This document shows, piece by piece, positions 4,694 through 40,487 of a stretch of DNA of 59,853 bases. The position numbers and the translations under genes are program-made. The stretch comes from Escherichia phage KS_A8, in the sequence record PP627279.1, one strand, 5' to 3'. Each line of letters opens with the position of its first letter. The stretch's first letter is position 1. Under the pieces are notes generated by a model, which saw nothing but the letters and a program-made list of their open reading frames with translations, did not search any database and was not told the origin of the DNA.

Positions 4694-5755
4694 ATGTCTA
4701 AATCTAAAATTATTCTGCCATTTGGTCGTGGTGAAACTGACCTGACTCGTTTGAAGGATGTCATTGTCCCTGAGATCTTCACTGGTTATGTGCAGACGCA
4801 GACCGCTGAACTTTCTGCTCTGATTCAATCCGGTGCGGTTGTAATGGACGAGCGTTTATCCGCTAACCTTGCTGGTGCAGGTCTGACTTTTAACGAGCCG
4901 TTCTATAACGACCTGAAAGATGAAGACGAAGATATCGCGGTTGATAAAGGCGATCCGTCCAAACCGTCTAACATCACTACCGGATCTGAAGTTCAGGTTC
5001 GTATGAGTCGTTCAAAATCCTGGGGTTCTGCGGATCTGGTATCAGCTTTGATTGGTAACGACCCAATGACCGCTATCGGTAACCGCGTGTCTGCGTGGTG
5101 GGTCCGCCGTCTGCAAGCTGCATACATCGCAACCTGGAAAGGTGTATTTGCTAATGCGAAGAAATCTCATAACGACGATTTGACTTTCGACATCTCTGGT
5201 TCTTCTTTTGTAAATAACCAGACCAACTTTACCGCGTCTAACTTCATCAACGCAACTGCAACGATGGGTGATGCTGCCCGCGGTCTGACTATGATTATGG
5301 TACACTCTACCGTTCGTAACCGTATGCGTCAGTTGAACCTGATCGACTTCATTCCAGATGCTCGCGGTGAAACTCAGTTTGAGTATTATCAGGGTCTGCG
5401 TATTATTGAAGACGACTCCATGCCACACGATCCGTCTACTGGTGTGTTTGAAAGCTGGCTGTTCGGCCCGGGCGCAACTGCAATGGGTGCTGGATCACCG
5501 AAAGTTCCGACCGCTGTGGTGCGTGACGAAGCCGCTAACCAAGGCGCTGGTGAAGAAGTTCTTCACAACCGTGTTGAATGGATTCTGCATCCGGTTGGCC
5601 ATGCTTGGGCTGCTGCTCAAACTGCTAAAGGTGGTCCGTCTAACGCTGCTACCACTAACAACCTGGCCCATGAAGATTCCTGGCGTCGTGCGTTCCCTGA
5701 GCGCAAGCAGCTTAAAGTTGCACGCCTGATCACTCGTGAGTATCAGGGTTCCTAA
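4694..5755 (+). CDS. major capsid protein
   Basis: 353 aa; position after the scaffold-like gene; followed by a strong intrinsic terminator, as expected for a highly expressed capsid gene. Confidence 0.7.
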   Translation: MSKSKIILPFGRGETDLTRLKDVIVPEIFTGYVQTQTAELSALIQSGAVVMDERLSANLAGAGLTFNEPFYNDLKDEDEDIAVDKGDPSKPSNITTGSEVQVRMSRSKSWGSADLVSALIGNDPMTAIGNRVSAWWVRRLQAAYIATWKGVFANAKKSHNDDLTFDISGSSFVNNQTNFTASNFINATATMGDAARGLTMIMVHSTVRNRMRQLNLIDFIPDARGETQFEYYQGLRIIEDDSMPHDPSTGVFESWLFGPGATAMGAGSPKVPTAVVRDEAANQGAGEEVLHNRVEWILHPVGHAWAAAQTAKGGPSNAATTNNLAHEDSWRRAFPERKQLKVARLITREYQGS

Positions 5756-5786
5756 GGCTTCACTCAACGCCGCGCTGTAGTATTTT

Positions 5787-5813
5787 GGGGACATCTTATG
5801 TCCCCTCTTTTTT
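5787..5813 (+). terminator. rho-independent terminator after the capsid gene
   Basis: GGGGACAT-CTT-ATGTCCCC hairpin followed by TCTTTTTT. Confidence 0.6.
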
Positions 5814-5825
5814 AGGAGAACAACC

Positions 5826-6149
5826 ATGCGTTATCAACGTTATGAGCCACATGACTTGATGGAAAAATCGTTGCAGGTGGAGCCAATTTCGATTACTCTC
5901 GATCCTGCTAAGATTGACACCACAACTTCAGAAGTAAAAACGGTTACTGTTAAAATAAACTTTGTCCCAGGCGGAACTACAAACAAAGCGTATAGCGCGT
6001 CAGTTGACGGTTCCTCTGCTACAATTAAAGACAACGGGGACGGTACAATTACCGTGACCACAACCGAAAGCAGCGGTACTTCAAACTTGACAGTAACGTC
6101 CAAGGCAAAGGATAGTGTTACTGGTACATGTGTTATTAATGTGACCTAA
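5826..6149 (+). CDS. Ig-like (Big_2-type) domain protein, possible capsid decoration
   Basis: 107 aa, Thr/Ser/Val-rich beta-strand pattern (TVTVKINF...GDGTITVTTTESSGTSNLTVTS) typical of bacterial Ig-like domains; lies right after the capsid gene. Confidence 0.45.
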   Translation: MRYQRYEPHDLMEKSLQVEPISITLDPAKIDTTTSEVKTVTVKINFVPGGTTNKAYSASVDGSSATIKDNGDGTITVTTTESSGTSNLTVTSKAKDSVTGTCVINVT

Positions 6150-6165
6150 AAATAAGGATTAAACA

Positions 6166-6819
6166 ATGAAGACATTAATTGAAGCATTGTTAGAACTTGA
6201 TCCGGAAAACCCGAATCATTGGACCAGCGATGGCTTACCTAAAGTAGACGCTCTGCGTTTCGCTACCGCTAACCCGTCTTTAACCCGCGACGATATTACG
6301 ACTGCTGCCCCTCTATTCACCCGCGATAACCGCGTGCTGGAAGAGCCTGAGCCTGTGGAACCCGTTAAATCTGCTGATCCAGTTTTACATGAAGCAGTTA
6401 AACAGGAGAAAGCTCATGAAGAACAAAAGAAAGTCGCGGTTGCAACGATGCAAATCGAAGTTAAGATTAGCGAAGCACTGCGTGCTCTTCTGGAGCCGGA
6501 AAAAATCGGTGACGCTTCCAGCTTAACCGATGAAGAACTGAAAGCGAAGCGCGAAAAGCTTAGCAATGTGGTTAAAGAGATTGCCCACACTAAGCACGCG
6601 TTGGAGCTCGCTATCGCAGACGTTCAAGCGGATCTGGATAAGATTATCGTTGAGCAGGAGCGTCGTCGTCCTAAGTCCGGTCTTACTGCAACTCAGATGT
6701 ATCTTGAAGCGCAGAAAAAACGTAAACCGGAAGACATGCTTTCTGACCATCGCTTCCAGAACCCTATTGACGATCCGGTCGCCCGTATGGTTGCACGTAA
6801 TATGATGCGTCGAGGTTAA
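6166..6819 (+). CDS. hypothetical structural protein
   Basis: 217-aa ORF in the head module, charged and helical; no motif recognised. Confidence 0.3.
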   Translation: MKTLIEALLELDPENPNHWTSDGLPKVDALRFATANPSLTRDDITTAAPLFTRDNRVLEEPEPVEPVKSADPVLHEAVKQEKAHEEQKKVAVATMQIEVKISEALRALLEPEKIGDASSLTDEELKAKREKLSNVVKEIAHTKHALELAIADVQADLDKIIVEQERRRPKSGLTATQMYLEAQKKRKPEDMLSDHRFQNPIDDPVARMVARNMMRRG

Positions 6820-6957
6820 CCATGGAAATGAGCCATAGACAATATGTGTTGTGGCTCCTCCGACGTAATAGAAAACGGCGTCAAGAAGACGCCGTTTCTG
6901 TTCCTGAAGAAGAGCTCCCGCCACTTATCCCTACAACCATCGCAATGAGGAAGAAAG

Positions 6958-7464
6958 ATGGAGATTCCACTGATAGTTGAAGATGGTACTGGTGTATTGG
7001 ACGCCAACAGTTATGTGACCATTGAACAAGTCCGCATGTATGCCGCAATGCGAGGTATTGTACTTCCAAGTGAAGATGAAGATCTAAAGACAAAGATCTT
7101 CGACGCTATGGATTTTGTGGAAGGATACGGTCAACGGTTTAAGGGTTACAAAATGGACCCACAGCAACCGCTAAATTGGCCACGCTACGGTGTGTTTGTG
7201 GATGGGTTCGAGCTACCCCAAAGCCCTTTACCAAAGGCGCTTATAAACGCTGTTTGCCAGCTTACAGCGGACTCAGCTACTGGCGGTCCTCTTAATGGGA
7301 AAACTACTGCATATGCAGTCAAAAGAACTAAAGTAGAAGGTCTTGAAATTGAATATGCAACTGGTAGCACAGCACAGTCAGGTCCAGCAAAAACATATGA
7401 TAAAGCTATGACGTTTTTATCACCTTTGCTGGGTTATCAAATGGGTAATAGATTGATACGGTGA
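6958..7464 (+). CDS. head-tail connector/adaptor protein (putative)
   Basis: 168 aa; position between head and tail genes; N-terminus resembles gp6-like connector proteins (from memory). Confidence 0.4.
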   Translation: MEIPLIVEDGTGVLDANSYVTIEQVRMYAAMRGIVLPSEDEDLKTKIFDAMDFVEGYGQRFKGYKMDPQQPLNWPRYGVFVDGFELPQSPLPKALINAVCQLTADSATGGPLNGKTTAYAVKRTKVEGLEIEYATGSTAQSGPAKTYDKAMTFLSPLLGYQMGNRLIR

Positions 7465-8718: not shown

Positions 8719-9642
8719 ATGGCTACAGGTTCACGTTATTCGTGTTACTACGTCAAAGAAGATGTAAGCAACACTACGCCAGCGAGTGCGAAGTTTACTC
8801 CGTTCCGTGTCACCAGCTCCGGTCTGGACATTAATATTGCAACGCTGGAATCCGAAGAACTGCGCGATGACGCTGAAACTGCGGACTTCCGCCTCGGTGC
8901 TCGCAGTGTTGAAGGTACAGTAACGGGCGAAATGTCCTTCGGCACCTTCGATGATCTTATTGCTGCTGCACTTCGTGGGGAGTGGCAAGACAACGTCCTT
9001 AAAGGCGGTATTATCCGTCAGTCATTTACTTTCGTAGACTATAACGCAGATCTACCGTCAGGTAAATATACGATTTATCGCGGTTGCGAAGTTAATAGCA
9101 TGACTTTCTCATTGTCTGCGGAAAACATGACCACAGTGGAATTCGGTATTGTTGGTCGCTCAATGGAAATTGCGGAATCGCTCCCATCTGGTGCAACTAT
9201 CAAAGAGCGTACGACTACTTCACCGATGGATGGTTTCTCCGGTCGCTTGCTGGAAAACGACGAAGAAATCAGCGTTATTACGGAAATCGGTCTTACCGTT
9301 GAAAACGATATTGCACCGCGCTTTGTTGTTGGTTCTAAGTTCTCCATTGAACCGTCCGCTGGCCGCCGTGCGGTAACTGGTACAGCTAACGTGTACTTCC
9401 TGGATAACAAGCTGCGTATGAAGTATCTGGATGAAGTGGAAACTTCAATCAAGTTTGATCTGATTGACCCAAGCAATCCGGAACAAAAATACACTGTGGA
9501 AATTCCTCGCGTGAAATTCACTGAAGCTCCGCGTCCTATTGACGGTGAAGGGGATATCATGCTTAATATGGGCTACCGCGGATTGCTGGACCCAACAACC
9601 GCAAGTTCCATCAAAATTACCCGCGTTTTAGCGGCAGCATAA
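8719..9642 (+). CDS. major tail protein
   Basis: 307 aa, RBS GAGAGGA, upstream of the chaperone/tape-measure pair. Confidence 0.55.
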   Translation: MATGSRYSCYYVKEDVSNTTPASAKFTPFRVTSSGLDINIATLESEELRDDAETADFRLGARSVEGTVTGEMSFGTFDDLIAAALRGEWQDNVLKGGIIRQSFTFVDYNADLPSGKYTIYRGCEVNSMTFSLSAENMTTVEFGIVGRSMEIAESLPSGATIKERTTTSPMDGFSGRLLENDEEISVITEIGLTVENDIAPRFVVGSKFSIEPSAGRRAVTGTANVYFLDNKLRMKYLDEVETSIKFDLIDPSNPEQKYTVEIPRVKFTEAPRPIDGEGDIMLNMGYRGLLDPTTASSIKITRVLAAA

Positions 9643-9651
9643 GGATAAGAA

Positions 9652-10059
9652 ATGACCGACACCAAAAAAGGCAAAGTTGCAGTAGCTAAAAGCTTCCGTG
9701 ATTTTAAAACTGTGAGCCGGGCAAACGACCCGGCAAACACTAAGCCTATGAATGTGGTTATTCCTGGTGTAGGCGACACTGGTGAAAAACTCTACATTCG
9801 TAGCCGCTACTGCACAGAGTATCGTGACGCAGAATTGAAAGCACAGCGTCAACTGTTGGCGCTTATGCAGGGTAAAGACGGTGAAGTAACGGATGCTATG
9901 AAGGAAGATATCCTTACCCGTTCACTGTGTAACCTTGTAGCAGGTTGGACTTTTGACGAGCCACCGACTGTTGATAACGTGTTTGAGTTCTTAACGGAGA
10001 ACCCAACTGTCCGAGAAGACCTTAACGTATTTGCCGCTAAAGATAGTAATTTTTTCTAA
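9652..10059 (+). CDS. tail assembly chaperone (gpG-like)
   Basis: 135 aa, directly upstream of the tape measure; ends at slippery heptamer T_TTT_TTC. Confidence 0.55.
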   Translation: MTDTKKGKVAVAKSFRDFKTVSRANDPANTKPMNVVIPGVGDTGEKLYIRSRYCTEYRDAELKAQRQLLALMQGKDGEVTDAMKEDILTRSLCNLVAGWTFDEPPTVDNVFEFLTENPTVREDLNVFAAKDSNFF

Positions 10060-10457
10060 AAGCGCGCAGACAGTTAATTGATAAGAAGATCCTCCAATGG
10101 GAACTAAATAGTAAAGTCCCCGGCGGGGGATCTTCTTTATTATCGCAACTGCAAAAGGTTGAGGAACAGTCTGGTAAGACGCCCCCTAAGCTTAAAGAAT
10201 ATCGGGAAAAGGAAATACCGCTTTGCTTCGAATATCTATCTACTTTATTTGATGATATCTACACTGGAGGAGATTTTAGTTATACAGAATTGCACAGCTA
10301 TCAAGTGACAATGGGCTTACATCTTCAACCGTACGAATGCGAAATACTGCGGCAGCTATGGCTTGAAAAGCGCGTGTCAGAAGCTGAACAAAATGCTAAA
10401 CTCATGGAAAGTCAAATGCAAAATCAAAATAAAGGTAGAAGAAAAAGGAGAAGATAA
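9652..10457 (+). CDS. tail assembly chaperone -1 frameshift product (gpGT-like)
   Basis: The -1 frame is open from the slippery site T TTT TTC (10050-10056) to TAA at 10455-10457, which overlaps the tape-measure ATG; inverted repeat AAGAAGATCC...GGATCTTCTT lies downstream of the slip site. Confidence 0.45.
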
Positions 10458-13400
10458 TGGCCGAAACCGCTTCGCTAGTAATCAGAGTTGACGCGAGAGG
10501 GATTAGTACCGCGGACTCTATGTTGCGGAACTTAGCGCGTACAGGTGACACAGCGGAGCGGTCTGCTCAACGTGTTACCTCCAGCTATAAAACATTGTCT
10601 AACACATCTAACGAACTTGCAACTGTCACAAGTCGTTTAGATGCTGCAATTGTAGGAATGATTAGCGTCGACACCATTAACCGTGTTATTTCGCTATCGG
10701 ACTCCTGGACTATCCTCACCAACAAACTTGAACTGGCTCGTACGGGTAATGAAACCGTTGCGGATGCGCAGCAACGCGTGTTTGATATTGCCCAGCGGTC
10801 ACGTACAAGCTTGGAAGCAACTGCAACTCTGTACTCCCGTCTCCAGCGTGCGATGAAGAATACTGGTATGACTGGTATGGAGCTTGGACGTATCACGGAA
10901 ACAATCAACAAAGCAATGATCGTTTCTGGTGCAACATCCCATGAAGCAAGTGCTGCCCTTATTCAGTTTTCGCAAGCAATGGCATCCGGTGTTCTGCGTG
11001 GGGATGAATTCCGCTCTGTTGCAGAACAAGCCCCGCGCTTAACTCAAATTATGTCCGATTCGTTAGGCGTTACCATTGGACAATTGCGTGAGCTGGCGTA
11101 CAGCGGAAAGTTAACTGCAGATGTGGTTATCAAATCGTTGTCTGGTGCTGCGGATACAATTGATAAAGAATTCAGCCGCACTATGCCAACGTTCAACCAG
11201 CAATGGACGGTTGCAACAAACAACTTGACTAAGTTTATGGGTGAATCCCAAAAGACTCAAGGTGCGGTCGCTGCATTGGGACAGACGTTTGTTGCATTAT
11301 CCGAAAACTTAGGAACGGTTGTAACGGTTGGTTCAGCTTTAGCCACAGTGATTACCGCCCGTATCATTACGGCAATGCTTGCTAAGACTAAAGCGTCTAT
11401 AGCTGCTGCAAAAGCATCGCAGATGGAAGCTGCACAAACTGCGGCAACTACGGCGGTGATGCAAAGCTCTATTGGCGTTACCGCACAGAAAGCGGCTGCG
11501 GATCGTGCTGCTTCGCTTGCTGCGTTACAGGTTGCTCGCGGGTCATTAGCGGTTGCTAAGGGTACGGCAGCGGAAGCGGGCGCACGTCTTGCCCTTATTA
11601 ACGCTACCCGTGCGCATTCTGCGGCAATTATGGCGGACGTACAAGCGCGGCAAGCGCTCAATGCTGCTCTTAATGCAACTGTACCAGCCGCAAGCCGGGC
11701 AGCTACAGCAATGAGCGTGCTGCGCGGTGCTATGGGGTTAATTGGTGGTCCTGTTGGTGTAGCAATGCTGGCAGCGGGTGCAATTTACTCCTATAAAGCG
11801 TCGCTGGAAGCAGGTCGTGCGGAAAACAATCAGTTTGCGGATAGTGTTGATTCTGTACGCGAGAAACTGATGCAAATGACGGAAGCTCAGCTGGCAGCTA
11901 ACGCGGTCAAAGCTAGAGCAATCCTTCCGGAACTTGAAGAGCAAATGAAGCGGGAGCAGACCGCTTTAAAATCTGCTACAGAAACACAGAAGTTCTATGA
12001 AGCACAATTAAAACGCCGTGCCGCGTCCGGTCGTGATACAGCTAGTGCCGAGAAGAACTTACAAATCGCAACGGATAACGTCAAGCTTGCTGCCGAGCGT
12101 GCTGAAGAAGCTCAACGCCGTTACAACAATGTCTTAGAAATGACAAGCCCTGCTATCGAGAAGATAATTCCGTTAGCTCGTCAGCTTGCTGCTGATATGA
12201 AGGCCGTTCTTAACATCAAATCCGGTCCACTTATTGACGAGAAAGTCCTTGACCGTTTTAAAGGTCAGCTAGGTGATGTCAACCGTGAGATTGATGTTAA
12301 CACGGTTAAGGGTGCTGGCAATGCTCGCCAAGCTGCAATCCTTAGTGGACTGTATCAGACGCTGGGCAAGGATGCTGATACATACGGAAGTCTTATTCGC
12401 AAAGTAGCTATGGGTCAGGACGTTAGCTCAGAGGCAACAAGCGAATCCGCTAAAGAGCTTGTTAAATATGCTCAAGATTTAGCCCAAGCTCTTGGCAAAA
12501 ACTACGATCTTGAAGAAGCAGAGAGAAACCGAACTAAAGCGACAAAAGACGGTATTAAAGCAGAACAACAGAACGCCAAAGTTATTGACGATTTACGCAA
12601 TAAGCTTAACGAAGTAACCACAGGGGTTAAGGAAAACGCCAAAGCGAAAGCGCAAGCGGTAGCACTTAATAAGCTCAATGCGTCTGCAACGGCTGCGGAA
12701 AAAGCAGAAGTCGTTAGTCTTGCTGCTGCAATCTACGATGCAGAAGAAGCTCAAAAGAAACTGGACGAGCGTAAGAAGAATCGTAAAGCTGCCGAAGACT
12801 TGTTAGGGGAAGGTAGAACAGACTACGCTAAAATTGAATACGAAATGCAAGAAAAGATCATGAAGCTTCATAGGGATCAAGAAGCAGATGACCTTGAGCA
12901 TTACAAACTGTATGAGGATGCTAAGACTCAAGTATTGGCGCAAGCTAACCTTCAAAGGGAAAACCTGAATAAAGTTCTTATGAACAGGATGATATCCTTT
13001 TCTCAGGACTCGTTAGGAATTATAATGGATGGTCTGTCACAGGCTGTAAGCCAGCAGAACTTCTTTTATAAAGCCATGTTTGCCGCGCAGAAAGCAATGC
13101 AAATTCCGTCAATCCTTGCTAACACGGAAACAGCCGCTTCAGCAGCCCTTGCATGGGGTACGCAGCAAGGTGGGGCTACAATGGGCGCGACAATGGCAGC
13201 GATAGTGAAGACTATGGGCTATGCGTCTGCCGCTACTGTGGGTGGCCTAGCAATCGCGGGTATGGCGCACGATGGCATTGATAACGTTCCGCGTGAAGGT
13301 ACATGGTTGCTGGATAAGGGTGAACGTGTACTTAATGCTCCGTCTAATGACAAGTTAAATCGCTTCCTGGATAGCCAAGCTTCACAACAAGGTGGCGTGA

Positions 13401-13573
13401 ATATGTCCGGTGGTGTTAGCATTGTTCAGTATATCACGGTGCAAGGAAATGGCGATGCAGCACTCACACAAGCCATGCAAAAAGCAGCCCGTGATGGCGC
13501 TGAGCAGGGATATAATAAAGTTCTTAATGACTTTGCATCCCGAGGAACAATTCGTAGAACTGCAATGGGGTAA
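10457..13573 (+). CDS. tail tape measure protein
   Basis: 1038 aa, Ala/Gln-rich helical protein with long low-complexity coiled-coil segments; position after the chaperone pair. Confidence 0.85.
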   Translation: MAETASLVIRVDARGISTADSMLRNLARTGDTAERSAQRVTSSYKTLSNTSNELATVTSRLDAAIVGMISVDTINRVISLSDSWTILTNKLELARTGNETVADAQQRVFDIAQRSRTSLEATATLYSRLQRAMKNTGMTGMELGRITETINKAMIVSGATSHEASAALIQFSQAMASGVLRGDEFRSVAEQAPRLTQIMSDSLGVTIGQLRELAYSGKLTADVVIKSLSGAADTIDKEFSRTMPTFNQQWTVATNNLTKFMGESQKTQGAVAALGQTFVALSENLGTVVTVGSALATVITARIITAMLAKTKASIAAAKASQMEAAQTAATTAVMQSSIGVTAQKAAADRAASLAALQVARGSLAVAKGTAAEAGARLALINATRAHSAAIMADVQARQALNAALNATVPAASRAATAMSVLRGAMGLIGGPVGVAMLAAGAIYSYKASLEAGRAENNQFADSVDSVREKLMQMTEAQLAANAVKARAILPELEEQMKREQTALKSATETQKFYEAQLKRRAASGRDTASAEKNLQIATDNVKLAAERAEEAQRRYNNVLEMTSPAIEKIIPLARQLAADMKAVLNIKSGPLIDEKVLDRFKGQLGDVNREIDVNTVKGAGNARQAAILSGLYQTLGKDADTYGSLIRKVAMGQDVSSEATSESAKELVKYAQDLAQALGKNYDLEEAERNRTKATKDGIKAEQQNAKVIDDLRNKLNEVTTGVKENAKAKAQAVALNKLNASATAAEKAEVVSLAAAIYDAEEAQKKLDERKKNRKAAEDLLGEGRTDYAKIEYEMQEKIMKLHRDQEADDLEHYKLYEDAKTQVLAQANLQRENLNKVLMNRMISFSQDSLGIIMDGLSQAVSQQNFFYKAMFAAQKAMQIPSILANTETAASAALAWGTQQGGATMGATMAAIVKTMGYASAATVGGLAIAGMAHDGIDNVPREGTWLLDKGERVLNAPSNDKLNRFLDSQASQQGGVNMSGGVSIVQYITVQGNGDAALTQAMQKAARDGAEQGYNKVLNDFASRGTIRRTAMG

Positions 13574-13576
13574 TAT

Positions 13577-14161
13577 ATGCTCACTTGGCCCGAAGAAATT
13601 AGACCTTCCGAGATGGAATGGTATCTTGTTTCAAACTCTGTTGAATTTACAAGCCCCTTTAATGGGGCTTCACAAACTGTGTCCTATCCTGGGTCACGAT
13701 GGGAAGCAACATTAACGTTCAGCAATTTAAATGACTGGCAATCCAGAAAGCTTGAATCAACGTTAGCTAAGCTTGACGGTAAAGCTGGTCGTATTATGCT
13801 TCAGGATTTTGGTCGCTGGGGTCGTGCACCGATTGGATCACCTGTGGTTAATGGCGCAAACAATACAGGGACAACTTTATCAACCAAAGGTTGGACTCCT
13901 AACAGAAAGGTTCTATGGGAAGGGGATTACATCGCAGTAAACAATGAATTAAAATTAATAACGGAAGATGCTTGGAGCGATTCTTCAGGTAACGTGATTT
14001 TAAACATTGCTCCGATGTTAAGGACTATCCCACCAAACGGGGCTAAAATCGAGACGCAGAAACCACAAGGAGCTTTTCGTTTATCTGACAACACTAACGG
14101 GGTTAAGCGTCAACCAGCTTTTAATAATTCATTCACTTTAAAATTCTCGGAGGCGTTCTAA
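13577..14161 (+). CDS. minor tail protein (gpM/distal tail-like)
   Basis: 194 aa, first gene after the tape measure. Confidence 0.4.
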   Translation: MLTWPEEIRPSEMEWYLVSNSVEFTSPFNGASQTVSYPGSRWEATLTFSNLNDWQSRKLESTLAKLDGKAGRIMLQDFGRWGRAPIGSPVVNGANNTGTTLSTKGWTPNRKVLWEGDYIAVNNELKLITEDAWSDSSGNVILNIAPMLRTIPPNGAKIETQKPQGAFRLSDNTNGVKRQPAFNNSFTLKFSEAF

Positions 14162-14745
14162 TGCTATTCAGTCCTTTCAGCGATACGCTTCTTAATGCAA
14201 TGGAGCAGCCAAACGTTAGTTTGGTCCTTGCTGCGGAAATCGACTTTCCTTCTGGTGTAACGCGTGTACATACTGGGACAGGTGTTGTTGTTATTAACGG
14301 TCAAACGTTCCTGGGCGTTGGTACGCTTGGTGACGTAGGATCTGTAACAGAAGAAAACAGCACAAGTTCCAGCACAATGTCCATGGCGCTAAGCGGTCTG
14401 GATATGAGTCTTGTTGGGGAGACGTTAAACGAAGAAGTTATCGGACGTAATGTTGTTTGCTATATTGCAGTGATGAACGATCAAGGTAACGTCATTGCTG
14501 CTAATATTTTGTTTGAAGGTTTCATTACAGACACCGCATTACAAGCAGGTCAACAGAATGCATTGAGTTATGTTATTTCCAACGTGTTTGAGCGTTGGTC
14601 ACAAGGTTTACCGGATCGCTATACGGATGAAAGTCAACAGCGTTTATATCCGGGCGACCGTTTCTTTAGATATATTGCACAAATGGCTGAACGTTCAATC
14701 TTCTGGGGGAGTAAAAAAGATGCGCCAGGGTTCTCCTATGAGTAA
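14161..14745 (+). CDS. minor tail protein (gpL-like)
   Basis: 194 aa, ATGA overlap with the upstream gene. Confidence 0.4.
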   Translation: MLFSPFSDTLLNAMEQPNVSLVLAAEIDFPSGVTRVHTGTGVVVINGQTFLGVGTLGDVGSVTEENSTSSSTMSMALSGLDMSLVGETLNEEVIGRNVVCYIAVMNDQGNVIAANILFEGFITDTALQAGQQNALSYVISNVFERWSQGLPDRYTDESQQRLYPGDRFFRYIAQMAERSIFWGSKKDAPGFSYE

Positions 14746-15154
14746 GTTGCCAGGCTGGCAGACACGTTTATTAACCACAGTAAAGGAGTTGTCATCGACT
14801 CCTTTTTCTTGGGGTGAAAATGATTGCTGCACCTTCGCGGCAAAATGTGTTGATGCGCAATACGGAACAAATATCTACGAACAAGTCGCTGGAAAATATA
14901 GTACAGAGCTTGGAAGTAAAAAGTTCACTATTGAAAGAGTTGGAACCGCTTACCTTCCATTGTTATTGGATACATATCTGAGCGAACGCGTTGACAAGAA
15001 CTATGCGCAAAGAGGCGATGTTGTTACATTTGAGGGAGCATTGGGCTTAACTGCTGGCATATTATGGACTGGATATGTATGGGCTATGGGTCCGAACGGT
15101 GTGGAAACATTCCCGCTTAATAAGATCAAAATTACGGATATTTGGAGGGTCTAA
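14720..15154 (+). CDS. tail assembly protein (gpK-like, putative)
   Basis: In-frame ATG at 14720 preceded by GGGGGAG; the track ORF from 14570 would overlap the upstream gene by 176 nt; contains NDCC cysteine motif. Confidence 0.35.
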   Translation: MRQGSPMSKLPGWQTRLLTTVKELSSTPFSWGENDCCTFAAKCVDAQYGTNIYEQVAGKYSTELGSKKFTIERVGTAYLPLLLDTYLSERVDKNYAQRGDVVTFEGALGLTAGILWTGYVWAMGPNGVETFPLNKIKITDIWRV

Positions 15155-18100
15155 TGCCACCAGCAATAATTGGAGCAGCGATAGCTTTAGGTGCGTCGGC
15201 TGCTGCTGCGGCTAGTATTATTTCGGCTACTACCGCTCTCGTTATCGGTATTGCTGCAACCGCGGCAGGTGCTCTTTTGACTAAGACACCAAATATGAAC
15301 TTTGATGCTTACAAGGGGCAGCAAGAGCGTAAACAGGTTCTGCGTGCGGCTACAGCGTCACGTTCTGTTGTATATGGCACGACCGTAGCGTCCGGACTAT
15401 TAGCATTTGCGGAGGAAGAAGCTGGAGATCAAGATGAAGGTGAATGGATGCATCTTGTTGTTGTTCTTGCTAGTCATAAATTGGAAGGTATTGAAACGAT
15501 TTGGTTGGGCGATGACGGAATTGATTGGTTTGGTGAAAACGCTACTTGGGAGTTTCATAACGACCGTCAGACTGTTGACCCATTCATGTTAAGACATTGT
15601 CCTTCCTGGAAGGAGGATATGATTGGCAAGGGTATTGCATGGCTACGTTTAAGCTTAAAGTTTGATGCTGAAAAATTCCCATCTGGTTTGCCAAACGTCA
15701 AGGTGTTGAAAAAGGGACGTAGAGTCTATGACCCACGTTCCGGTCAAACTGTCTTTAGCGATAACGCTGCTCTTGTTATTCTTGATTATTTCCGCACGTA
15801 TTTAAAGCGCAAGGACGAGAATATTAACTGGGACCAATTCAAGGAAGCTGCTAACATCTGCGATGAGTTTGTTACTAACGCAGATAACACTACGGAAAGA
15901 CGCTACCGCATTAACGGTGAGTTTGAAGTGGATGAAGCACCTGCCAAAATCCTTGATGCTATGCTTGAAGCTTGCGGTGGGGAACTAACCTATATTGGCG
16001 GCAAGCATGGTCTGTTAGTTGGCGCTTATTATGGTCCTGCTACCATGACTTTGGACGAAAGCTGCATTGCTGGGGATATTAAAATTATCCCTGAAACATC
16101 TTATAAAGAGCGCACCAATACCATTACAGGTACATTCGTTGACCCGAAGCAAACATACGCTGAAGCAGATTTTCCTCCAGTTGTGGTTAAGGAATGGGTG
16201 GAAAAAGATGGCGGCGAAATAACGCAGGACATGGATTTCCGCTTTGTTACAAGTGAATATCAAGCTCAACGTCTTGCTAATATTATTTTACGTCGTAAGC
16301 GTGTTGGTCGAACAATTGAAGTGCCGTGTAACATGAAGGGGTATAAATTCCGCCCGGGCATGTATGTCAACGTGACAATTTCAAATATTGGAATGAAAAA
16401 TGTTGAGATGCGCGTTACTAAATGGTCATTCGATCCTAAAGGTGGAATTAATCTTGTCCTTCGTCAAGACTTCCTGGAAATGTGGGACGATGCTATTGGT
16501 AAACCAATGGAGCGTCCGGATCTGGTAGACCTTCCGTCTGGTGCTATTGCTCAACCGCAAAACCTTCAGTATCAGGTATTGCAGATCAGCGATGTTGTGC
16601 AAGGTGTTTTAACATGGAGCAATATTGGACAGGTAGCGTATAACCGCGTAGCCGTGCGACAGGGAGGTACAACGGTTTGGACTGCACAAGTCCCTGGCCA
16701 AAACGTTCGCGTTACTGGGTTGCTGCGTGGCGCGTATACAGCGCATGTTCAAGCGGTAGCTTATAGCGGGGCAATATCACCGGAAGCGTATCTTGAATTT
16801 AATATTCAAGCGCCGCCTCCGCCAACGTCTATTGAAGTGCAACAGGGTTACTTTGCTATAAGTCTAATCCCTAAATCCGCAGATATTGCAAACGTTAGCA
16901 CGCAGTATGATTTTTGGACCTCTGGTGAAACAAGATTGTCTTCCGTGTCTACGGATATTGTGGAACGCGAAGCAACTCGTAAAGGTATGGGTACAACATG
17001 GACTTCAGAAGGTTTGAAGAATGACCACACTTATTACTGGTATGTTCGCACTATCAACGCTTTTGGATCGTCTGCATTTGTAGAGGTTGCTGCATTGTGC
17101 TTCACAACAGCTACAGACTTAATGCCACAGATTGATTCTGAGTTCAAGAAGACGGAGACTTATAAAGAGCTTACTGCTGAAATTACAGGTGTTAAAGACG
17201 GTGTTACCCAACTCAGCCAAACTGTAGTAGATACAGAAAAGCGTTTAAGCCAAAGTGTTAGCAACGTTCAGCAGAGCGTTATTACTTTGGACGGTGTTGT
17301 TCAGGATCAAGGCGTTACTATCAATGAACAAGGACAACTTATTGATGCACAGGGCCGATTGATTGATACGCAAGGTAAAACTATTCAGCAAGTTAGCGCA
17401 ACTGTACAGGAGACAAGTAAAGCAGTCGTAGATCTGGAAGGTAATGTTAACGCTCAATGGGGCGCTAAGGTACAGGTTGACAGTAAAGGACAAAAATACG
17501 TTGCTGGTATCCAGTTGGGTATGGAAGGGTCTGGTGGTGCTGTCCAATCTTACTTCATGGTAAGTGCCAACAACTTTGCCATCTATAACCCGACAAACAG
17601 CGTAGCAGAACTGGCATTTGCTGTTAAGAACGGTCAAGTGTTCATGAAGGCTGCGTTTATTGAAAATGGTACTATCGACAGCGCCAAAATTTCAAACCAG
17701 ATTCAGTCAACCAACTACGCTAACAATAGCGCGGGTTGGATGATTAACAAGAACGGTAGCGCTCAGTTTAACAACGTAACGATAAGGGGTACGGTATACG
17801 CTAACAACGGGTCTTTCACAGGTACAGTCAACGCCACAAGCGGTAAATTCAAGGGTACTGTGGAAGCTACCAGTTTTGTGGGTGATGTTGCGAATATGTG
17901 TGTCATTGCTGAGTCTGCAATACCAAACACACAAACTACAAGTTCAAGAACCTGGACAAAAACTTTCAAAGACTCATCCGGTTCAACATTATCTAAAGAC
18001 TTTGTGTTGTTATTAAGTTATAGTTTAACCGCATATACATCAAATCAGGCAAGTCGTATAATTGTGACTGCTAACATAGGTGGAACATCAATAACAAGGA

Positions 18101-34451: not shown

Positions 34452-35261
34452 TTACAAGCCGTTCAGGGCTTCCGGTACTGGTACAGGTACGCGACCAGTC
34501 ACACCATTAAATTTCTTCCAGCGTGCATACTGGGTTTTAACGGTATCTTCGTTCAGACCATGGCGACCAGCCAGGTTCAGAACATAAGAGATCGGAGCAG
34601 GCTGACCCAGCGTAGCGCTAATCTGGTCCATCAGAGCCCAGGCACGACCGCAGGAAGTTTCCGGTTGCGGGCGACGAACACCGTTCTGTTCGGGCATACG
34701 ATTAGCTTCTTTTTCTTTCTCGCGGAGCTCTTTAGCGCGTGCTTTTTCCGCTTCTTTTTCTGCCTGTTTTGCAGCACGGATCTTGTCTTTGAAGCCTTTA
34801 ATAGTAGCTTCCAGACCATCCACCAGACCCTGGGCAGAAGTTACAGCACCGGACAGGTCTTCACCTTTAGACTTCTTAACGACAGCTTTCAGCTCTTTCA
34901 GAGCTTCTTTAATGGTCTTCAGGTTTGCAGATCCCTGAGTTTCTGCTTCCGTGATCTGTTCAACAGTGCTTTCGTCGGTGACGGTAGCCAAAGAGTTTTT
35001 CAGAATTTCAGCAGCGTTAGCAATCGCATTAAATTTGTTTTCCGCTTCAGCGCGGATTTCAGCTTGTTTCTTTTCAGCGGCAGCTTTTTTCTCTGCTTCT
35101 TTTTTCTCTTTTGCTACGCGTGCAGCTTCAGCAGCAGCGGCTTTCTTAGCTTCTGCGTCATTCGCAGTAGCTTCTTTCTTTGCAGGTTTAGCAGATTTTG
35201 CAGCGGCAGCGGCGGCTGCGGCAGCAGCTTTTTTGTCTTCAATGTTGCTCATTCTCTTCAC
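34452..35261 (-). CDS. Ala/Lys/Glu-rich low-complexity protein with conserved C-terminal domain (histone H1-like composition)
   Basis: 269 aa; poly-Ala/Lys N-terminal half; C-terminus ...TQYARWKKFNG similar to the C-terminus of the 51220-51834 product. Confidence 0.35.
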   Translation of the reverse strand: MKRMSNIEDKKAAAAAAAAAAKSAKPAKKEATANDAEAKKAAAAEAARVAKEKKEAEKKAAAEKKQAEIRAEAENKFNAIANAAEILKNSLATVTDESTVEQITEAETQGSANLKTIKEALKELKAVVKKSKGEDLSGAVTSAQGLVDGLEATIKGFKDKIRAAKQAEKEAEKARAKELREKEKEANRMPEQNGVRRPQPETSCGRAWALMDQISATLGQPAPISYVLNLAGRHGLNEDTVKTQYARWKKFNGVTGRVPVPVPEALNGL

Positions 35262-35933: not shown

Positions 35934-37916
35934 TTAGAACGGAACGTAATCCGGATCATCTACTTGCACAGGATTAACCACATTGTTCACCGTTATACCT
36001 TGCGTATTCTGCGAAACAATATCGTCCCAGCTCACATCATCATTATAGCTTGGACCTTCTGTTGTTCCATCCTGCCCGTATACTTTAACCTGAATAGCTT
36101 CGTCGTCCTGTGGTGCTTCAAACTTACCGAAACACGTACCATCATAATCATAGTTCAAAATCTCAGGCCATTTCTTATTGGTATGAACTTTGATGTATTT
36201 CGGCGTTTTGAGCATCGCAGCAACATCAAGGGCTTCTTCAATAGTTTGTGGTAAAGGAAGATGCGTCCTTTTCTTCCACCATGCAACCGCTTTACGACCA
36301 GCCCAGTCGCCATGCAGCAAAGCTACCCATTCGCTAAATATTTTACTACCGCAATAATAAGTCACCTTCATTGTTGGAGGTTTGGAGCTGTCATTGCGTT
36401 TAGTGTGCTTCGCATAAGTGACATGCGTGACTTTAAAGTCTTCAACTACCGGAATGTCCTGTTTGATCAATGCTTCGGTACTTGCTGCCTTTTTAAGTTT
36501 CGTCTGGAACTTAAACTCATGACCGCAAAATCCTTCTTTAACATAATCCGTTCCACGTAGTCTGAATCCCTTCAAATATAATTGTTGAACTTGTTCCTGT
36601 GTAACGCTGTCCATAGGAATTGGTGCAAAGCCACCGCAATAGCGAGCAGATGCATGATTATACGACCCGCACACATCGCATTCTTTAACCGGAGCAGTAC
36701 CAGCACCTTTTTCGCCCGGGCGCTTAGGTTTAACAGGGTCGTTAATAGGCCCCAAACGGCGCGTATTACCGCTGAAATCCAGTACAAGGCAGTTTTGCTT
36801 AGGGCTTGCTGCAATAGCTTGCAAGCGACCTTCCTGCGTGGAAAGATCAAAGCCCTCCGCATATACCGGACGCGTACCGCGACCCAACATCTGAACCCAT
36901 AGCACCGCCGACGCAGTGGGGCGGAGCATGATAATTAGATCGAGCATCGGATGGTCGAAACCTGTGGTTAAGACGTTGTTGTTTGTCAATGCTCGAAACT
37001 CTCCACGCTTGAACTTTTCAATAATTTCATCACGCTCTTTTGCATCAAGCTTTGAGTGAATACATCCGCAACTAATACCCATATCGTTCAGCATATCACA
37101 CGCATCTTTAGCGTGTTCAATACCAGAACAAAATATAAGCCAGCTTTGACGGTCTTCACCACATTCAATGGCTTCCTCAAGTGCGCGGAGTGTTGCGTCG
37201 TCGCGGTTTACCGCACTTTGCAGCTCGCTTTGAATAAACTCACCGCCGCGTTTCCCTACACCATTGAGGTCCAGTTCCATCTTTGTACGCTTTGGCACAA
37301 CCGGAAGCAAATAACCTTGCTCCAGGAACCAGTTAAAGGCTTCATGGGTAGTCGCATCAAACGTTACTTTATCAAATAAAGCATCATCGTCTTCGTTTTC
37401 CTTAACAATTGAGCCGTAACCCAGTCGATAAGGTGTAGCGGTAAGACCGATAATTTTTAAATACGGGTTAACTTCACGCAATGCTGCAAAGAACTTCTTA
37501 TACATTGTTGCATCACGCGGACTAATAAGGTGCGCTTCATCCACAAAAATTAGATCTACCTTGCCGAACTTTTTAGGATGCTTAGCAACAGATGCGATCC
37601 CCGCAAATGTGATAAGATTATAAACTTCTTTACGCTTCAAACCTGCGCTGTAAATACCTGCTGGCGCTTCAGGCCAGACTTTCATTAATTTATCATAGTT
37701 TTGTGCAATTAACTCTTTGACATGAGTTAACATCATTACGCGCTGGTTTGGATACCATTTATAAAGCAGATCGAGGAACCCCGCGATAACGAGCGATTTT
37801 CCTGTCCCTGTTGGTAACAGGATCAAAGGGTTCCCCGCGTTACCCTTTTCAGCATCAAAATAGCGGAATACGCTATAAACTGCTTCCTGTTGATAATCGC
37901 GGAGCTGCATAATCAA
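35934..37916 (-). CDS. SF2 DNA helicase (DEAH box) with C-terminal Cys cluster
   Basis: RDYQQEAV Q-motif, Walker A LLPTGTGKS, motif II VDEAHLIS, C-terminal CDVCGSYNHASARYCGG. Confidence 0.75.
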   Translation of the reverse strand: MIMQLRDYQQEAVYSVFRYFDAEKGNAGNPLILLPTGTGKSLVIAGFLDLLYKWYPNQRVMMLTHVKELIAQNYDKLMKVWPEAPAGIYSAGLKRKEVYNLITFAGIASVAKHPKKFGKVDLIFVDEAHLISPRDATMYKKFFAALREVNPYLKIIGLTATPYRLGYGSIVKENEDDDALFDKVTFDATTHEAFNWFLEQGYLLPVVPKRTKMELDLNGVGKRGGEFIQSELQSAVNRDDATLRALEEAIECGEDRQSWLIFCSGIEHAKDACDMLNDMGISCGCIHSKLDAKERDEIIEKFKRGEFRALTNNNVLTTGFDHPMLDLIIMLRPTASAVLWVQMLGRGTRPVYAEGFDLSTQEGRLQAIAASPKQNCLVLDFSGNTRRLGPINDPVKPKRPGEKGAGTAPVKECDVCGSYNHASARYCGGFAPIPMDSVTQEQVQQLYLKGFRLRGTDYVKEGFCGHEFKFQTKLKKAASTEALIKQDIPVVEDFKVTHVTYAKHTKRNDSSKPPTMKVTYYCGSKIFSEWVALLHGDWAGRKAVAWWKKRTHLPLPQTIEEALDVAAMLKTPKYIKVHTNKKWPEILNYDYDGTCFGKFEAPQDDEAIQVKVYGQDGTTEGPSYNDDVSWDDIVSQNTQGITVNNVVNPVQVDDPDYVPF

Positions 37917-38821
37917 TCTTTCCCGTAATAGTTAGCTACTTGATAGTTTTGACAACCAACTTTTTGGCCCTGAGTATCTACTGCAACGGAATGGAAATTG
38001 CAATACCATGTTCCATCATCTTTTGGCTCAAGAAATTGGCATGTGCGACAGTTTACTTCCGGCATAGTTTTACGCCAGCACAATGAGGAGTGGTCACACC
38101 ATTTGCATTCGAAGAAGGTAGAGTCTTTGAATGCACGGTCAGGAATATCCGTAGCAATAGCAATCTGCACACCACGATCAATATACATGTCCGCAGTGAC
38201 CGGATCAAATGGAATAATTTCTGCGTAAACTTCATCATCGTTCTTGTTTACAGCAAGATATAACGCTGCACCAAGTCCAAGCTTTCGCATGTACACGTTC
38301 ATCTGCACATAGTGCTCAGGTTTAGCTTCTTTGACACCTTTAGCTTTCAGCTTCTTGAAAGACTTATCGTTGTGGGTCTTCATTTCAGTAAGCACAGGCA
38401 TTCCAGGCTGAACGTCCGGACAACCTATAACCACACCATCACAGGAACCGCCAAAGTGTCCGCCAGCTTCGCTGATACGGAACTGGTGTCCGTTTTCGTC
38501 CTGCTGATAGACCTGCATACCTGCCGCAAGAAGCATAGCAATAAAGCGCGCTTCTTCCAGATGTCCGCGGTTAAACAGTCGAAGCTGGCGTCCATCGAAC
38601 TCTTTACGCGTAGCCCAGCGATATCCGTAGAACAGCTTGCGAGCACATTGTTGCCCAATAAGGGAAGCACCTAAGTGGCTGCGGTTGCCGCTTTCGGGGC
38701 GATATGCGTCTTCAATTGTGGGAATAACTACGCCGAGATATTTACGGTAAGTCCCACCCTGATCTTTTTGCACACCGTCATTGATTGCTTGAAGTGTTTT
38801 TTCTGCAATATAAATAGCCAT
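37913..38821 (-). CDS. PD-(D/E)XK exonuclease (YqaJ/lambda Exo-like) with C-terminal Cys cluster
   Basis: 302 aa; LTEMKT and QMNVYMRKLG fit the D...E.K...QxxxY nuclease signature; four C-terminal Cys. Confidence 0.5.
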   Translation of the reverse strand: MAIYIAEKTLQAINDGVQKDQGGTYRKYLGVVIPTIEDAYRPESGNRSHLGASLIGQQCARKLFYGYRWATRKEFDGRQLRLFNRGHLEEARFIAMLLAAGMQVYQQDENGHQFRISEAGGHFGGSCDGVVIGCPDVQPGMPVLTEMKTHNDKSFKKLKAKGVKEAKPEHYVQMNVYMRKLGLGAALYLAVNKNDDEVYAEIIPFDPVTADMYIDRGVQIAIATDIPDRAFKDSTFFECKWCDHSSLCWRKTMPEVNCRTCQFLEPKDDGTWYCNFHSVAVDTQGQKVGCQNYQVANYYGKD

Positions 38822-38886: not shown

Positions 38887-39759
38887 TTACTGCTGCCACG
38901 GCGGGACTGCTGCTTGTGCCGGATGCGGTTCAGCTTGCTGCTGTGGCTGCGCTTGCTGCTGCGGTGCCGCTGCCTGACCCGGCTGTGCTACCTGCTGCGC
39001 CCACGGCTGCTGAGATGCTTCCGGCGCTACTGGCTGTTGTACCGGAGCTTGCTGAACTGGCTGCTGTGGCGCTGCGTTTTGAGCAGGGTTATCCCACGGC
39101 TGCGGTGCGGCATTCTGCCACGGTTGAGCTGCTGCGCCCTGCTGCGGTGCTGGTTGCTGAACAGGCTGCTGTTGCTGTACCGGAGCTTGCTGCTGTACAG
39201 GTGCTTGCTGTTGCTGAGCAAACGGGTTAGCTGCTGGCTGCTGCGGTGCTGCGCCCGGGAATGCCGGCTGCTGTGCTGGCGCACCTGCACCGAACGGGTT
39301 AGCTACTGCTACTTGAGCACCCATTGATGGAGCCTCTGCTGCTTTTTCTGCATATTTAACCGGATCGTTAATGTTAGCATAACCGTTAGGCTCGTTGCTG
39401 TCTTCATAACCTTCCTGAGAACGAACTTTCAGACGCAGGTTCAGCGGAATGTTATGCAATTGAGCAGGAGTATCCCAGCGAATTACACCAACTGCATGAG
39501 ATAGAGCGCCCAGTTGCTCGTAAGCGATACGCACAGTATCTTCGTTGTCATTGATGACGTTATAACGAGCAAAGATTTTACGCCCTTTAGCAAAACCGTC
39601 AATGATGCTAAACGTTACCTGGATCGCCATACCGCCATTTTTGGTCGGTTTAAATTCAGATGCTTCAATTACTGCTTTATACCAACCTTTCGGCAATGCG
39701 CCGTAAGAAGGTGCTTGATAGCTGCTCGCGTCAAAGTGGAAATTAGTTGGCATAGTCAT
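38887..39759 (-). CDS. putative ssDNA-binding protein (DUF669-like) with Gln/Pro/Ala-rich tail
   Basis: 290 aa; globular ~140-aa N-terminal domain then low-complexity tail (QQPAFPGAAPQQPAANPFAQQQQAPVQQQAPVQQQQPVQQ...); next to Sak4-like ATPase and exonuclease. Confidence 0.35.
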   Translation of the reverse strand: MTMPTNFHFDASSYQAPSYGALPKGWYKAVIEASEFKPTKNGGMAIQVTFSIIDGFAKGRKIFARYNVINDNEDTVRIAYEQLGALSHAVGVIRWDTPAQLHNIPLNLRLKVRSQEGYEDSNEPNGYANINDPVKYAEKAAEAPSMGAQVAVANPFGAGAPAQQPAFPGAAPQQPAANPFAQQQQAPVQQQAPVQQQQPVQQPAPQQGAAAQPWQNAAPQPWDNPAQNAAPQQPVQQAPVQQPVAPEASQQPWAQQVAQPGQAAAPQQQAQPQQQAEPHPAQAAVPPWQQ

Positions 39760-40487
39760 TAGTTGATACCTTTCATTTTGTTGATAACAGAACCTAAGTG
39801 TGGGACTTCAACCGCATCTAAACGTCCCGAACGATCCTTAGCGATTGTATTAAAGTCCGGTTGAGTTTGCAAGTAACGATATGAGTTACCTTGCTGATCC
39901 TTATTTACATTCAGACGAAACACTTCGTCGAAGAAGTAAGGGAGCATTTGCCCCAATTTGGACCCAGGCATAGATGGAGCATACGCGGTAACACCGGAGA
40001 CTTCATCTTTGTCTTTGCCCATTTTAGCAGACATATAAACATGTTTGCCAGGAATATCGCGAAATTTACGGATCAGATCTTGCATCTTTTCAAGCAAAGT
40101 ACCATAAGCTTGACGAGGATCTTTTGTTCCTTTTTTCGCATTGTTTAAACATTGTTCAGCAATTTCGCTCAAGCTGTCAAGCGCAATAGAATCGAAATAC
40201 TGCTGGTTAGCTGGAGTTACACACCACTGATAAGCAGCTTCAACGTCCTCCAGACATTTAACTTCAATAACTGGGATATCATAAACGATCGGCAATCCCA
40301 TATTACCATAAACGCGATTAAGGTTTTCCGCTGCAATAGATAACAGACCGGACTCTGCGCTGATCAAAATTGGTTTAGGTAGTGTGGCTACAAGGCTGGT
40401 TTTACCCATACCCGCTTCACCGTAAACCAGAATTTTAACGCCTGTGTCTTGCACTACTTGTGAAGACATTTTAATTTCAATGGCCAT
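39759..40487 (-). CDS. Sak4-like RecA-fold ATPase (recombination)
   Basis: 242 aa; Walker A VYGEAGMGKTSL near N-terminus; typical size and neighbourhood for phage Sak4-like proteins. Confidence 0.5.
   Translation of the reverse strand: MAIEIKMSSQVVQDTGVKILVYGEAGMGKTSLVATLPKPILISAESGLLSIAAENLNRVYGNMGLPIVYDIPVIEVKCLEDVEAAYQWCVTPANQQYFDSIALDSLSEIAEQCLNNAKKGTKDPRQAYGTLLEKMQDLIRKFRDIPGKHVYMSAKMGKDKDEVSGVTAYAPSMPGSKLGQMLPYFFDEVFRLNVNKDQQGNSYRYLQTQPDFNTIAKDRSGRLDAVEVPHLGSVINKMKGIN

Follow-up and report, generated by a model that had tools for sequence, protein, structure and literature searches.

The 59,853 nt stretch of DNA from Escherichia phage KS_A8 that was analysed (PP627279.1; hereafter the window) includes a minus-strand gene for an SSB-like protein (Table 1). 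KS_A8 is a Seuratvirus (Queuovirinae), shares 98.3% identity with phage KS_W4 over this region and has 34 relatives in GenBank. A sequence-only reading had singled out 38887–39330 as encoding a Gln/Pro/Ala-rich low-complexity tail, and this range comprises codons 144–290 and the stop codon, the 3′ half of the gene. The ATPase encoded directly upstream matches Pfam AAA_24 (1.2e-27) and the Sak4-like PHROG 124 (1.7e-59). Its stop codon and the ATG of the SSB gene share 1 nt (39757–39761, minus strand), which suggests that the two are translationally coupled. In KS_W4 (PP627281.1), the orthologous CDS (188–1051 of the examined stretch) was deposited with a start two codons downstream of the conserved MTMPTNF with which other records begin, leaving a 5 nt gap to the Sak4 gene in place of the 1 nt overlap, and this is probably a start-codon miscall. 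Beyond the SSB gene, some 20 nt ahead of the gene for a Cas4-like exonuclease (37913–38821), is a hairpin for which the annotation of phage SA126VB gives a rho-independent terminator; it may raise the expression ratio of the SSB to the downstream gene.

Table 1. Features of the SSB gene of KS_A8 and its surroundings (positions in the window)
Feature	Position	Strand	Evidence
Sak4-like AAA_24 ATPase gene, encoding the likeliest candidate partner of the tip	39759..40487	-	Pfam, PHROG, gene order
DUF669-type SSB gene, 290 aa: OB domain, hinge, disordered tail, tip	38887..39759	-	ORF, Pfam, PHROG
OB-fold DNA-binding domain (predicted), aa 1–135	39355..39759	-	AF2, Foldseek, pN/pS 0.04
Fast-evolving hinge, aa 136–152 (YAEKAAEAPSMGAQVAV)	39304..39354	-	pN/pS 0.66, drop in pLDDT
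Q/P/A-rich disordered linker, aa 153–248	39016..39303	-	Composition, pLDDT, pN/pS 0.06–0.07
Indel hotspot, aa 185–200 (QAPVQQQAPVQQQQPV)	39160..39207	-	Codon alignment of 21 genes; TRF array
Conserved C-terminal module, aa 249–290 (SQQPWAQQVAQPGQ...EPHPAQAAVPPWQQ)	38890..39015	-	Identity to relatives, pN/pS
PPW tip, P286 P287 W288, then QQ and stop codon	38896..38904	-	Conservation in homologues
Intrinsic-terminator-like hairpin, 26 nt past the SSB stop codon	38840..38861	-	9 bp stem, GAAA loop, T5
Spurious antisense ORF, 137 aa (a second: 38916–39230, 104 aa)	38914..39327	+	By-product of Q/P/A codons

The same gene order was found further afield. An AAA_24 gene is directly upstream of the DUF669 gene in 9/9 distant loci, where the usual block consists of genes for a ligase, Sak4, the DUF669 protein, a protein of roughly 300 aa and an SF2 helicase; in the KS_A8 window the roughly 300 aa protein is the Cas4-domain exonuclease, and the helicase is encoded at 35934–37916. 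The replication region of phage Seurat encodes a polymerase, clamp, primase, helicase, ligase, RNase H, Sak4-like ATPase, Cas4-like exonuclease and RusA, and no second SSB is annotated there. At 9198–15680 of Seurat, which is homologous to part of KS_A8, genes of the replication module are intermingled with those of a queuosine/7-deazaguanine pathway (encoding a queuine tRNA-ribosyltransferase-like protein, GTP cyclohydrolase I, QueD, QueC and QueE). Several other phages whose DUF669 proteins carry a PPW tip are also Queuovirinae (Nonagvirus members 9g, JenP1 and SE1), a subfamily name that refers to queuosine.

Residues 8–131 of the KS_A8 protein match positions 2–126 of the 138 in the Pfam DUF669 profile (PF05037) with 52.6 bits (E = 6.6e-14), where the curated gathering threshold is 21 bits, and no other family was returned in the Pfam scan (E ≤ 0.01). 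The full length of the protein matches PHROG 13350, and there are further matches to the SSB PHROGs 6015, 378 and 7778. When a 69-sequence alignment was used as input for AlphaFold2 (AF2), the model of the N-terminal domain had pLDDT >90 for residues 20–135 and the order strand-strand-strand-helix-strand-strand (strands 25–38, 44–52 and 61–69; helix 73–90; strands 106–113 and 121–129). The closest match when this model was used to query the PDB with Foldseek was the OB-fold protein PrgE of plasmid pCF10 (8s4s; E = 4.5e-6, target TM 0.63), followed by Bacillus subtilis SsbA with DNA and other bacterial SSBs (E about 1e-2). The five-stranded barrel, the helix between strands 3 and 4 and the likeness to solved SSBs that characterise OB-fold SSBs are thus all seen in the model, which is a predicted structure only. 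Although PrgE (PDB 8S4S/8S4T; PMC11137577) comes nearest to the predicted OB domain among solved structures, the sequences are only 12% identical, and the PrgE chains in these structures, at about 130 aa, lack both a Q/P/A tail and a PPW tip. At the sequence level, the full protein matched nothing in the PDB but lysostaphin, by chance and through low complexity (E = 9.3).

In phages without any other SSB, DUF669 proteins have been predicted to act as the replicative SSB (Kazlauskas et al. 2016, PMC4889955), and the KS_A8 protein belongs to this family, with no other SSB annotated in the replication region of Seurat. The DUF669 match, the SSB PHROGs, the OB model, the Foldseek matches, the lack of another annotated SSB and the published prediction together justify the description SSB-like, which the sequence-only reading had reached from the letters, and we infer that the protein binds ssDNA. 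Genes of this kind are already in GenBank as hypothetical proteins.

Of the 145 residues of the tail (146–290), 77% are Q (46), A (36) or P (29); only three are acidic (D+E), and none is K or R. At the 11% frequency of K+R in the window, a tail free of both has a probability of about 5e-8. Its four Trp and three Phe (F156, F167, F180, W214, W222, W253 and W288) are Pro-flanked, and the first five fall within the linker. AF2 found no secondary structure in residues 141–290, with pLDDT of 42–57 and values below 50 from residue 143, inside the hinge; the disorder prediction that had been put forward as a check on the tail therefore came out in favour of disorder.

At 63.7%, the GC content of 38887–39330 exceeds that of the window (44.7%). 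On the plus strand, CTGCTG is present in 14 copies in 444 nt (31.5/kb), about 50-fold more than elsewhere (0.62/kb), and GCTGCTG in 10 copies, compared with 0.24/kb elsewhere. The peptide QQAPVQQ occurs twice in the tail and PQQPAA once. The coordinates, the GC richness, the CTGCTG excess and the peptides given in the sequence-only reading thus hold, but the label of trinucleotide repeats goes too far. The longest perfect triplet run in the tail DNA is 9 nt (3 units), and TRF found only weak 9 and 18 nt arrays (66–75% matches, scores 33–59); the periodicity is an imperfect 9/12/18 nt. Shuffling synonymous codons gave CTGCTG counts as high as the real one (p = 0.25), while shuffling the order of codons gave fewer (p = 0.03). 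We conclude that the repetitiveness of the DNA is dictated by the protein sequence.

The composition of the tail probably also accounts for several misannotations of the SSB gene in GenBank. Odd names on the gene or its neighbour, which include ‘cell division protein FtsK’, ‘methyl-accepting chemotaxis protein’, ‘dihydrolipoamide acyltransferase component’ and ‘multimodular transpeptidase-transglycosylase’, were found in PQ202980.1 (CSP1C), KX534337.1 (Greed), MN504636.1 (Quinobequin-P09) and MN592896.1 (Alteromonas XX1924), and are probably false annotations arising from low-complexity A/P/Q matches. A second low-complexity protein is encoded in the window at 34452–35261 (minus strand; 269 aa) and is the counterpart of a Seurat hypothetical protein. 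It has an N-terminal Ala run and 190 A/K/E-rich, highly charged and probably helical residues (AAAAAAAAAKSAKPAKKEA...), whereas its C-terminal 70 residues are more ordinary.

Orthologues from 20 relatives were codon-aligned with the KS_A8 gene. Across the 21 proteins there are 11 different lengths between 277 and 302 aa, so that length is not invariant, and a protein of 262 aa was found in an additional metagenomic cluster. There are no indels in the OB domain among the 21 aligned genes. All of the approximately nine independent indels are in the tail, all are multiples of three, and they take the form of gain or loss of a repeat unit or deletion between direct repeats. Those at genus level cluster in the hotspot, inside an 18 nt TRF array (39148–39217). 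A 12 nt unit, CAGCAGCCNGTN (QQPV), is present there once in KS_A8 and twice in most relatives, an 18 nt QQAPVQ unit has been lost from GottfriedDienst and SA126VB, and relatives differ by the gain or loss of single CAG codons. At other places in the tail, a 54 nt deletion in phage Greed is flanked by the direct repeat CAGCAGCC, UViG_3300029643 has a tandem duplication of 18 nt (APQQPA) and P0004 lacks 28 residues. Such indels are what slipped-strand mispairing leaves behind when the reading frame is kept by selection. The length variation by replication slippage that had been foreseen from the sequence is therefore real, but the tail is not a uniformly slippery tract, as one 16-residue hotspot dominates. 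A microsatellite or trinucleotide contingency tract was also considered and rejected, as the longest perfect run is 3 units and every indel observed keeps the frame.

Among 20 close genes compared pairwise, pN/pS was 0.04 in the OB domain, 0.06 in the tail and 0.03 in residues 261–290, but 0.66 in the hinge. The linker, at 0.06–0.07, is as constrained as the tail overall, and the hinge is the only relaxed segment. The tail is therefore not neutral filler but a region under purifying selection about as strong as that on the folded domain. When the protein was compared with relatives in which the OB domain is 80–87% identical, the last 42 residues were 86–90% identical and the hinge and mid-linker 50–75%; composition inflates identities in low-complexity sequence, though not to the level seen in the last 42 residues.

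Long ORFs opposite the tail exist because Q/P/A codons cannot make opposite-strand stop codons in register 0. They had been called spurious from the sequence, and this was borne out: an overlapping antisense gene is excluded, because pS is not depressed (0.19 in the tail, 0.18 in the OB domain), variable sites favour the third position of the sense codons in the tail (8/7/45 for positions one to three) as in the OB domain (11/7/59), and the antisense frames are broken in three relatives. The slippage-type indels and the long antisense ORFs might be taken to mean that the tail is a functionless low-complexity expansion kept by slippage alone, or that the region is constrained by an antisense gene. 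As well as the evidence on the antisense frames, a pN/pS of 0.06, roughly nine independent indels that are all in-frame and a tip that is conserved across representatives sampled from 5142 clusters (see below) argue against both versions. The comparative data already contradict this explanation, and we consider it scarcely credible.

The tail ends in a conserved tip. In the alignment of 69 homologues, with identities down to about 40%, W288 is invariant and P286 and P287 are at least 90% conserved, a level matched by a handful of invariant OB core residues. The tails of 105 parsed homologues are 107–214 aa, with medians of 75% Q/P/A and 0 K/R, and contain 2–7 Trp, 80% of them preceded by Pro; PPW is inside the last 20 residues in 100/105. 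Among the ORFs of the window, only the SSB gene encodes a protein with PPW or PPF at its C-terminus, and the motif is thus confined to this one protein of the phage. The last 42 residues alone were also compared with 5.8 billion proteins to find the tip on other scaffolds; no candidate had three 5-residue words in common with them, and the lack of matches is uninformative. When only the OB domain was used as the query, an exhaustive HMMER search returned 5142 clusters at 50% identity, 1435 of them at E ≤ 1e-10. Among the best 150 of the 5142 cluster representatives, where tails range from 18 to 208 aa, a Trp is inside the last 16 residues in 144. The residue two before this Trp is Pro in 90% and the one directly before it in 88%, and 2–7 residues usually follow. 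The net charge of the last 15 residues is 0 or +1 in 109/150 of the same set, and acidic PPF or LPF tips were found in only 2/150 (DDVPPFE and DDDSDLPF). The spacing of the last two Trp was examined as a sign of a folded bipartite module; it is not fixed, and the distribution is broad and bimodal (10–20 and 30–50 aa).

Since the tip is kept while tail length spans 18–208 aa, the linker behaves as a tether of variable length. Members with tails of just 18–30 aa retain the PPW tip with a single W, and thus the tip rather than multivalency is the conserved feature. The invariant PPW, which the sequence-only reading had passed over, is on this comparative evidence the element most likely to be functional.

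As in proteins of the SSB-Ct type, a disordered low-complexity linker separates the OB domain of the KS_A8 protein from its tip. In the classical SSB-Ct mode, a partner is bound through acidic residues and the carboxylate of the terminal Phe. The KS_A8 tip is not an acidic tip of the D-D-D-I-P-F type with a free carboxylate: its last 15 residues (AEPHPAQAAVPPWQQ) include one acidic residue, and the Trp is followed by QQ. As the tip is uncharged and its aromatic residue is not C-terminal, the classical mode cannot apply and the chemistry must differ. With only three acidic residues in 145, the tail also does not bear out the likeness to the acidic tails of canonical SSBs that had been suggested for it. 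DUF669 proteins have been generalised as having acidic C-terminal tails (PMC4889955). Given a near-terminal Trp in 144/150 and an acidic PPF or LPF in 2/150 of the best 150 of 5142 representatives, that generalisation does not describe the clade with PPW. These comparisons set apart a very large group of phage SSBs in which a Q/P/A linker under strong purifying selection carries a PPW that is non-acidic and close to the C-terminus. We did not find a description of a PPW-type SSB tip in the searchable literature.

Escherichia coli SSB, as outlined in PMC7584906, consists of an OB domain, a disordered linker and a conserved C-terminal tip. The KS_A8 protein shares this three-part layout, a disordered, low-complexity linker rich in Q and P, and a conserved tip motif of Pro plus an aromatic residue. 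However, its OB domain belongs to DUF669, its linker is about 2.5 times longer (about 100–145 aa), Ala-rich instead of Gly-rich and without K or R, and its tip is uncharged. In place of the DDDIPF ending, a Trp is followed family-wide by 2–7 residues, leaving no free aromatic carboxylate.

A closer parallel is the SSB of phage HK620 (HkaK), the gene for which is also directly downstream of one for a Sak4-like ATPase; adjacency to an AAA_24 gene is the mark of a Sak4-cognate SSB of this type. The last six residues of HkaK, NDYPPF, are needed for Sak4 to bind SSB-coated ssDNA and for the stimulation of annealing, and their deletion abolishes that binding and lowers recombineering about 10-fold (Hutinet et al. 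2018, PMC5928155). Both proteins have a Pro-Pro-aromatic end (YPPF in HK620, VPPW in KS_A8), but the tail of HkaK, of about 45 aa, carries charges, contains Asp and has Phe as its last residue. Similarity between the two proteins was not detected by BLASTP (E = 4.8) or hhalign (probability 3.9% over 34 columns), and the HK620 SSB has no Pfam DUF669 match. HK620 is thus an analogous precedent, and not a demonstrably homologous one.

The SSB of phage N4, gp45 (6322–7119), is likewise encoded after a Sak4-like protein, gp44 (5521–6276). Its C-terminus, ...AAKSLFGKK, is basic rather than acidic, with the aromatic residue fourth from the end, and represents a third tip flavour among Sak4-linked SSBs. 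Unlike the KS_A8 tail, it is basic, is not Q/P/A-rich and has no PPW. N4 SSB reportedly activates the host RNA polymerase at late promoters. A tail that similarly contacts RNA polymerase would be in keeping with the shared position after a Sak4-like gene, the non-acidic C-terminus and a link between DUF669 and N4 SSB found by HHsearch (PMC4889955). However, the tails share no sequence similarity, hhalign of the KS_A8 protein to the single N4 SSB sequence gave a weak match (probability 11%) that leaves homology unconfirmed, and the conserved neighbours of the DUF669 gene are recombination and replication genes. We therefore consider a role of the tail in transcription highly improbable. As direct homology to either SSB is not confirmed by sequence, the link to HK620 and N4 rests on the literature.

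Our preferred reading, to which we assign a probability of roughly 0.6, is that 38887–39330 encodes the disordered tail of a DUF669 SSB, made up of a Q/P/A linker and a conserved docking tip. The OB domain would coat ssDNA, and the long uncharged linker would project a short conserved peptide, with its length tolerated within wide limits and shifting via slipped-strand gain or loss of 3, 12 and 18 nt units and deletion between short direct repeats. The C-terminal module, ending in PPW plus 2–7 residues, would dock partner proteins onto the SSB-coated ssDNA. Because PPW resembles the PPF of HK620 and because of the gene order, the likeliest partner would be the Sak4-like annealing ATPase encoded immediately upstream; other members of the ligase-Sak4-SSB-exonuclease-helicase block, or a host protein, are also candidates. 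The sequence-only reading had proposed that the tail mediates protein–protein interaction, and the conserved tip and the analogy with HK620 point the same way, so that we infer the docking function from them and, with the gene order, the identity of the partner.

Docking is not the only use to which a tip of this kind could be put. For T4 gp32, T7 gp2.5 and E. coli SSB, the acidic tail has been proposed to compete with DNA for the binding groove. The Trp motifs of the KS_A8 tail could in the same way fold onto the ssDNA groove of the OB domain, where aromatic residues might mimic base stacking, and the tip of the HK620 SSB has been suggested to be hidden until ssDNA is bound (PMC5928155). However, the tail has almost no negative charge with which to mimic DNA, and in the AF2 model it does not dock on the domain and has pLDDT of only 42–57, so an autoregulatory tail appears improbable.

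A point against the docking-linker model is that purifying selection acts across the whole linker within the genus and exceeds what a passive spacer needs. Together with the regularly spaced Pro-flanked aromatic residues, this suggests that the linker does more than tether. The internal Pro-flanked Trp and Phe are probably either weaker copies of the tip contact or points of self-association, and the linker may thus provide extra weak contacts or, by analogy with what is reported for the E. coli linker, SSB–SSB association. In its strongest form, self-association would have the seven Pro-flanked aromatics act as stickers in an uncharged spacer and drive SSB–SSB cooperativity or condensates on ssDNA, as in a phage replication compartment. 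The regular aromatic motifs (2–7 W per tail, 80% after P, in 105 homologues), the absence of charge and the selection on the whole linker are consistent with this, and the E. coli SSB linker is described, in outline, as mediating cooperativity and phase separation (PMC7584906; bioRxiv 10.1101/2022.01.17.476650). On the other hand, the members with tails of 18–30 aa keep PPW but have only one W. Self-association, which is compatible with docking, is in our view possible but rather unlikely.

Returning to the docking tip, we tentatively suggest, with more doubt than conviction, that PPW plus a few residues is an undescribed and widespread SSB docking motif that is non-acidic and carboxylate-independent. 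The large DUF669 clade, by which we mean most of the best 150 of 5142 clusters, would use it to recruit Sak4-like recombinases or parts of the replisome, and internal QPW and NPF copies would give a multivalency that could organise a replication or recombination compartment.

The C-terminal tips of SSBs are the hubs by which replication, repair and recombination enzymes find ssDNA, and by the textbook rule, stated for DUF669 proteins as well, these tips are acidic. The very large clade of phage SSBs described here keeps the OB-linker-tip design, but with an uncharged Pro-Pro-Trp set back from the extreme C-terminus. Within Seuratvirus, the slippage hotspot is a useful strain-level length marker. 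If the tip does recruit the adjacent Sak4-like annealase, it would provide a simple peptide handle with which to study, and possibly improve, Sak4-based recombineering, and the docking of partners to SSBs would have at least two chemically different solutions.
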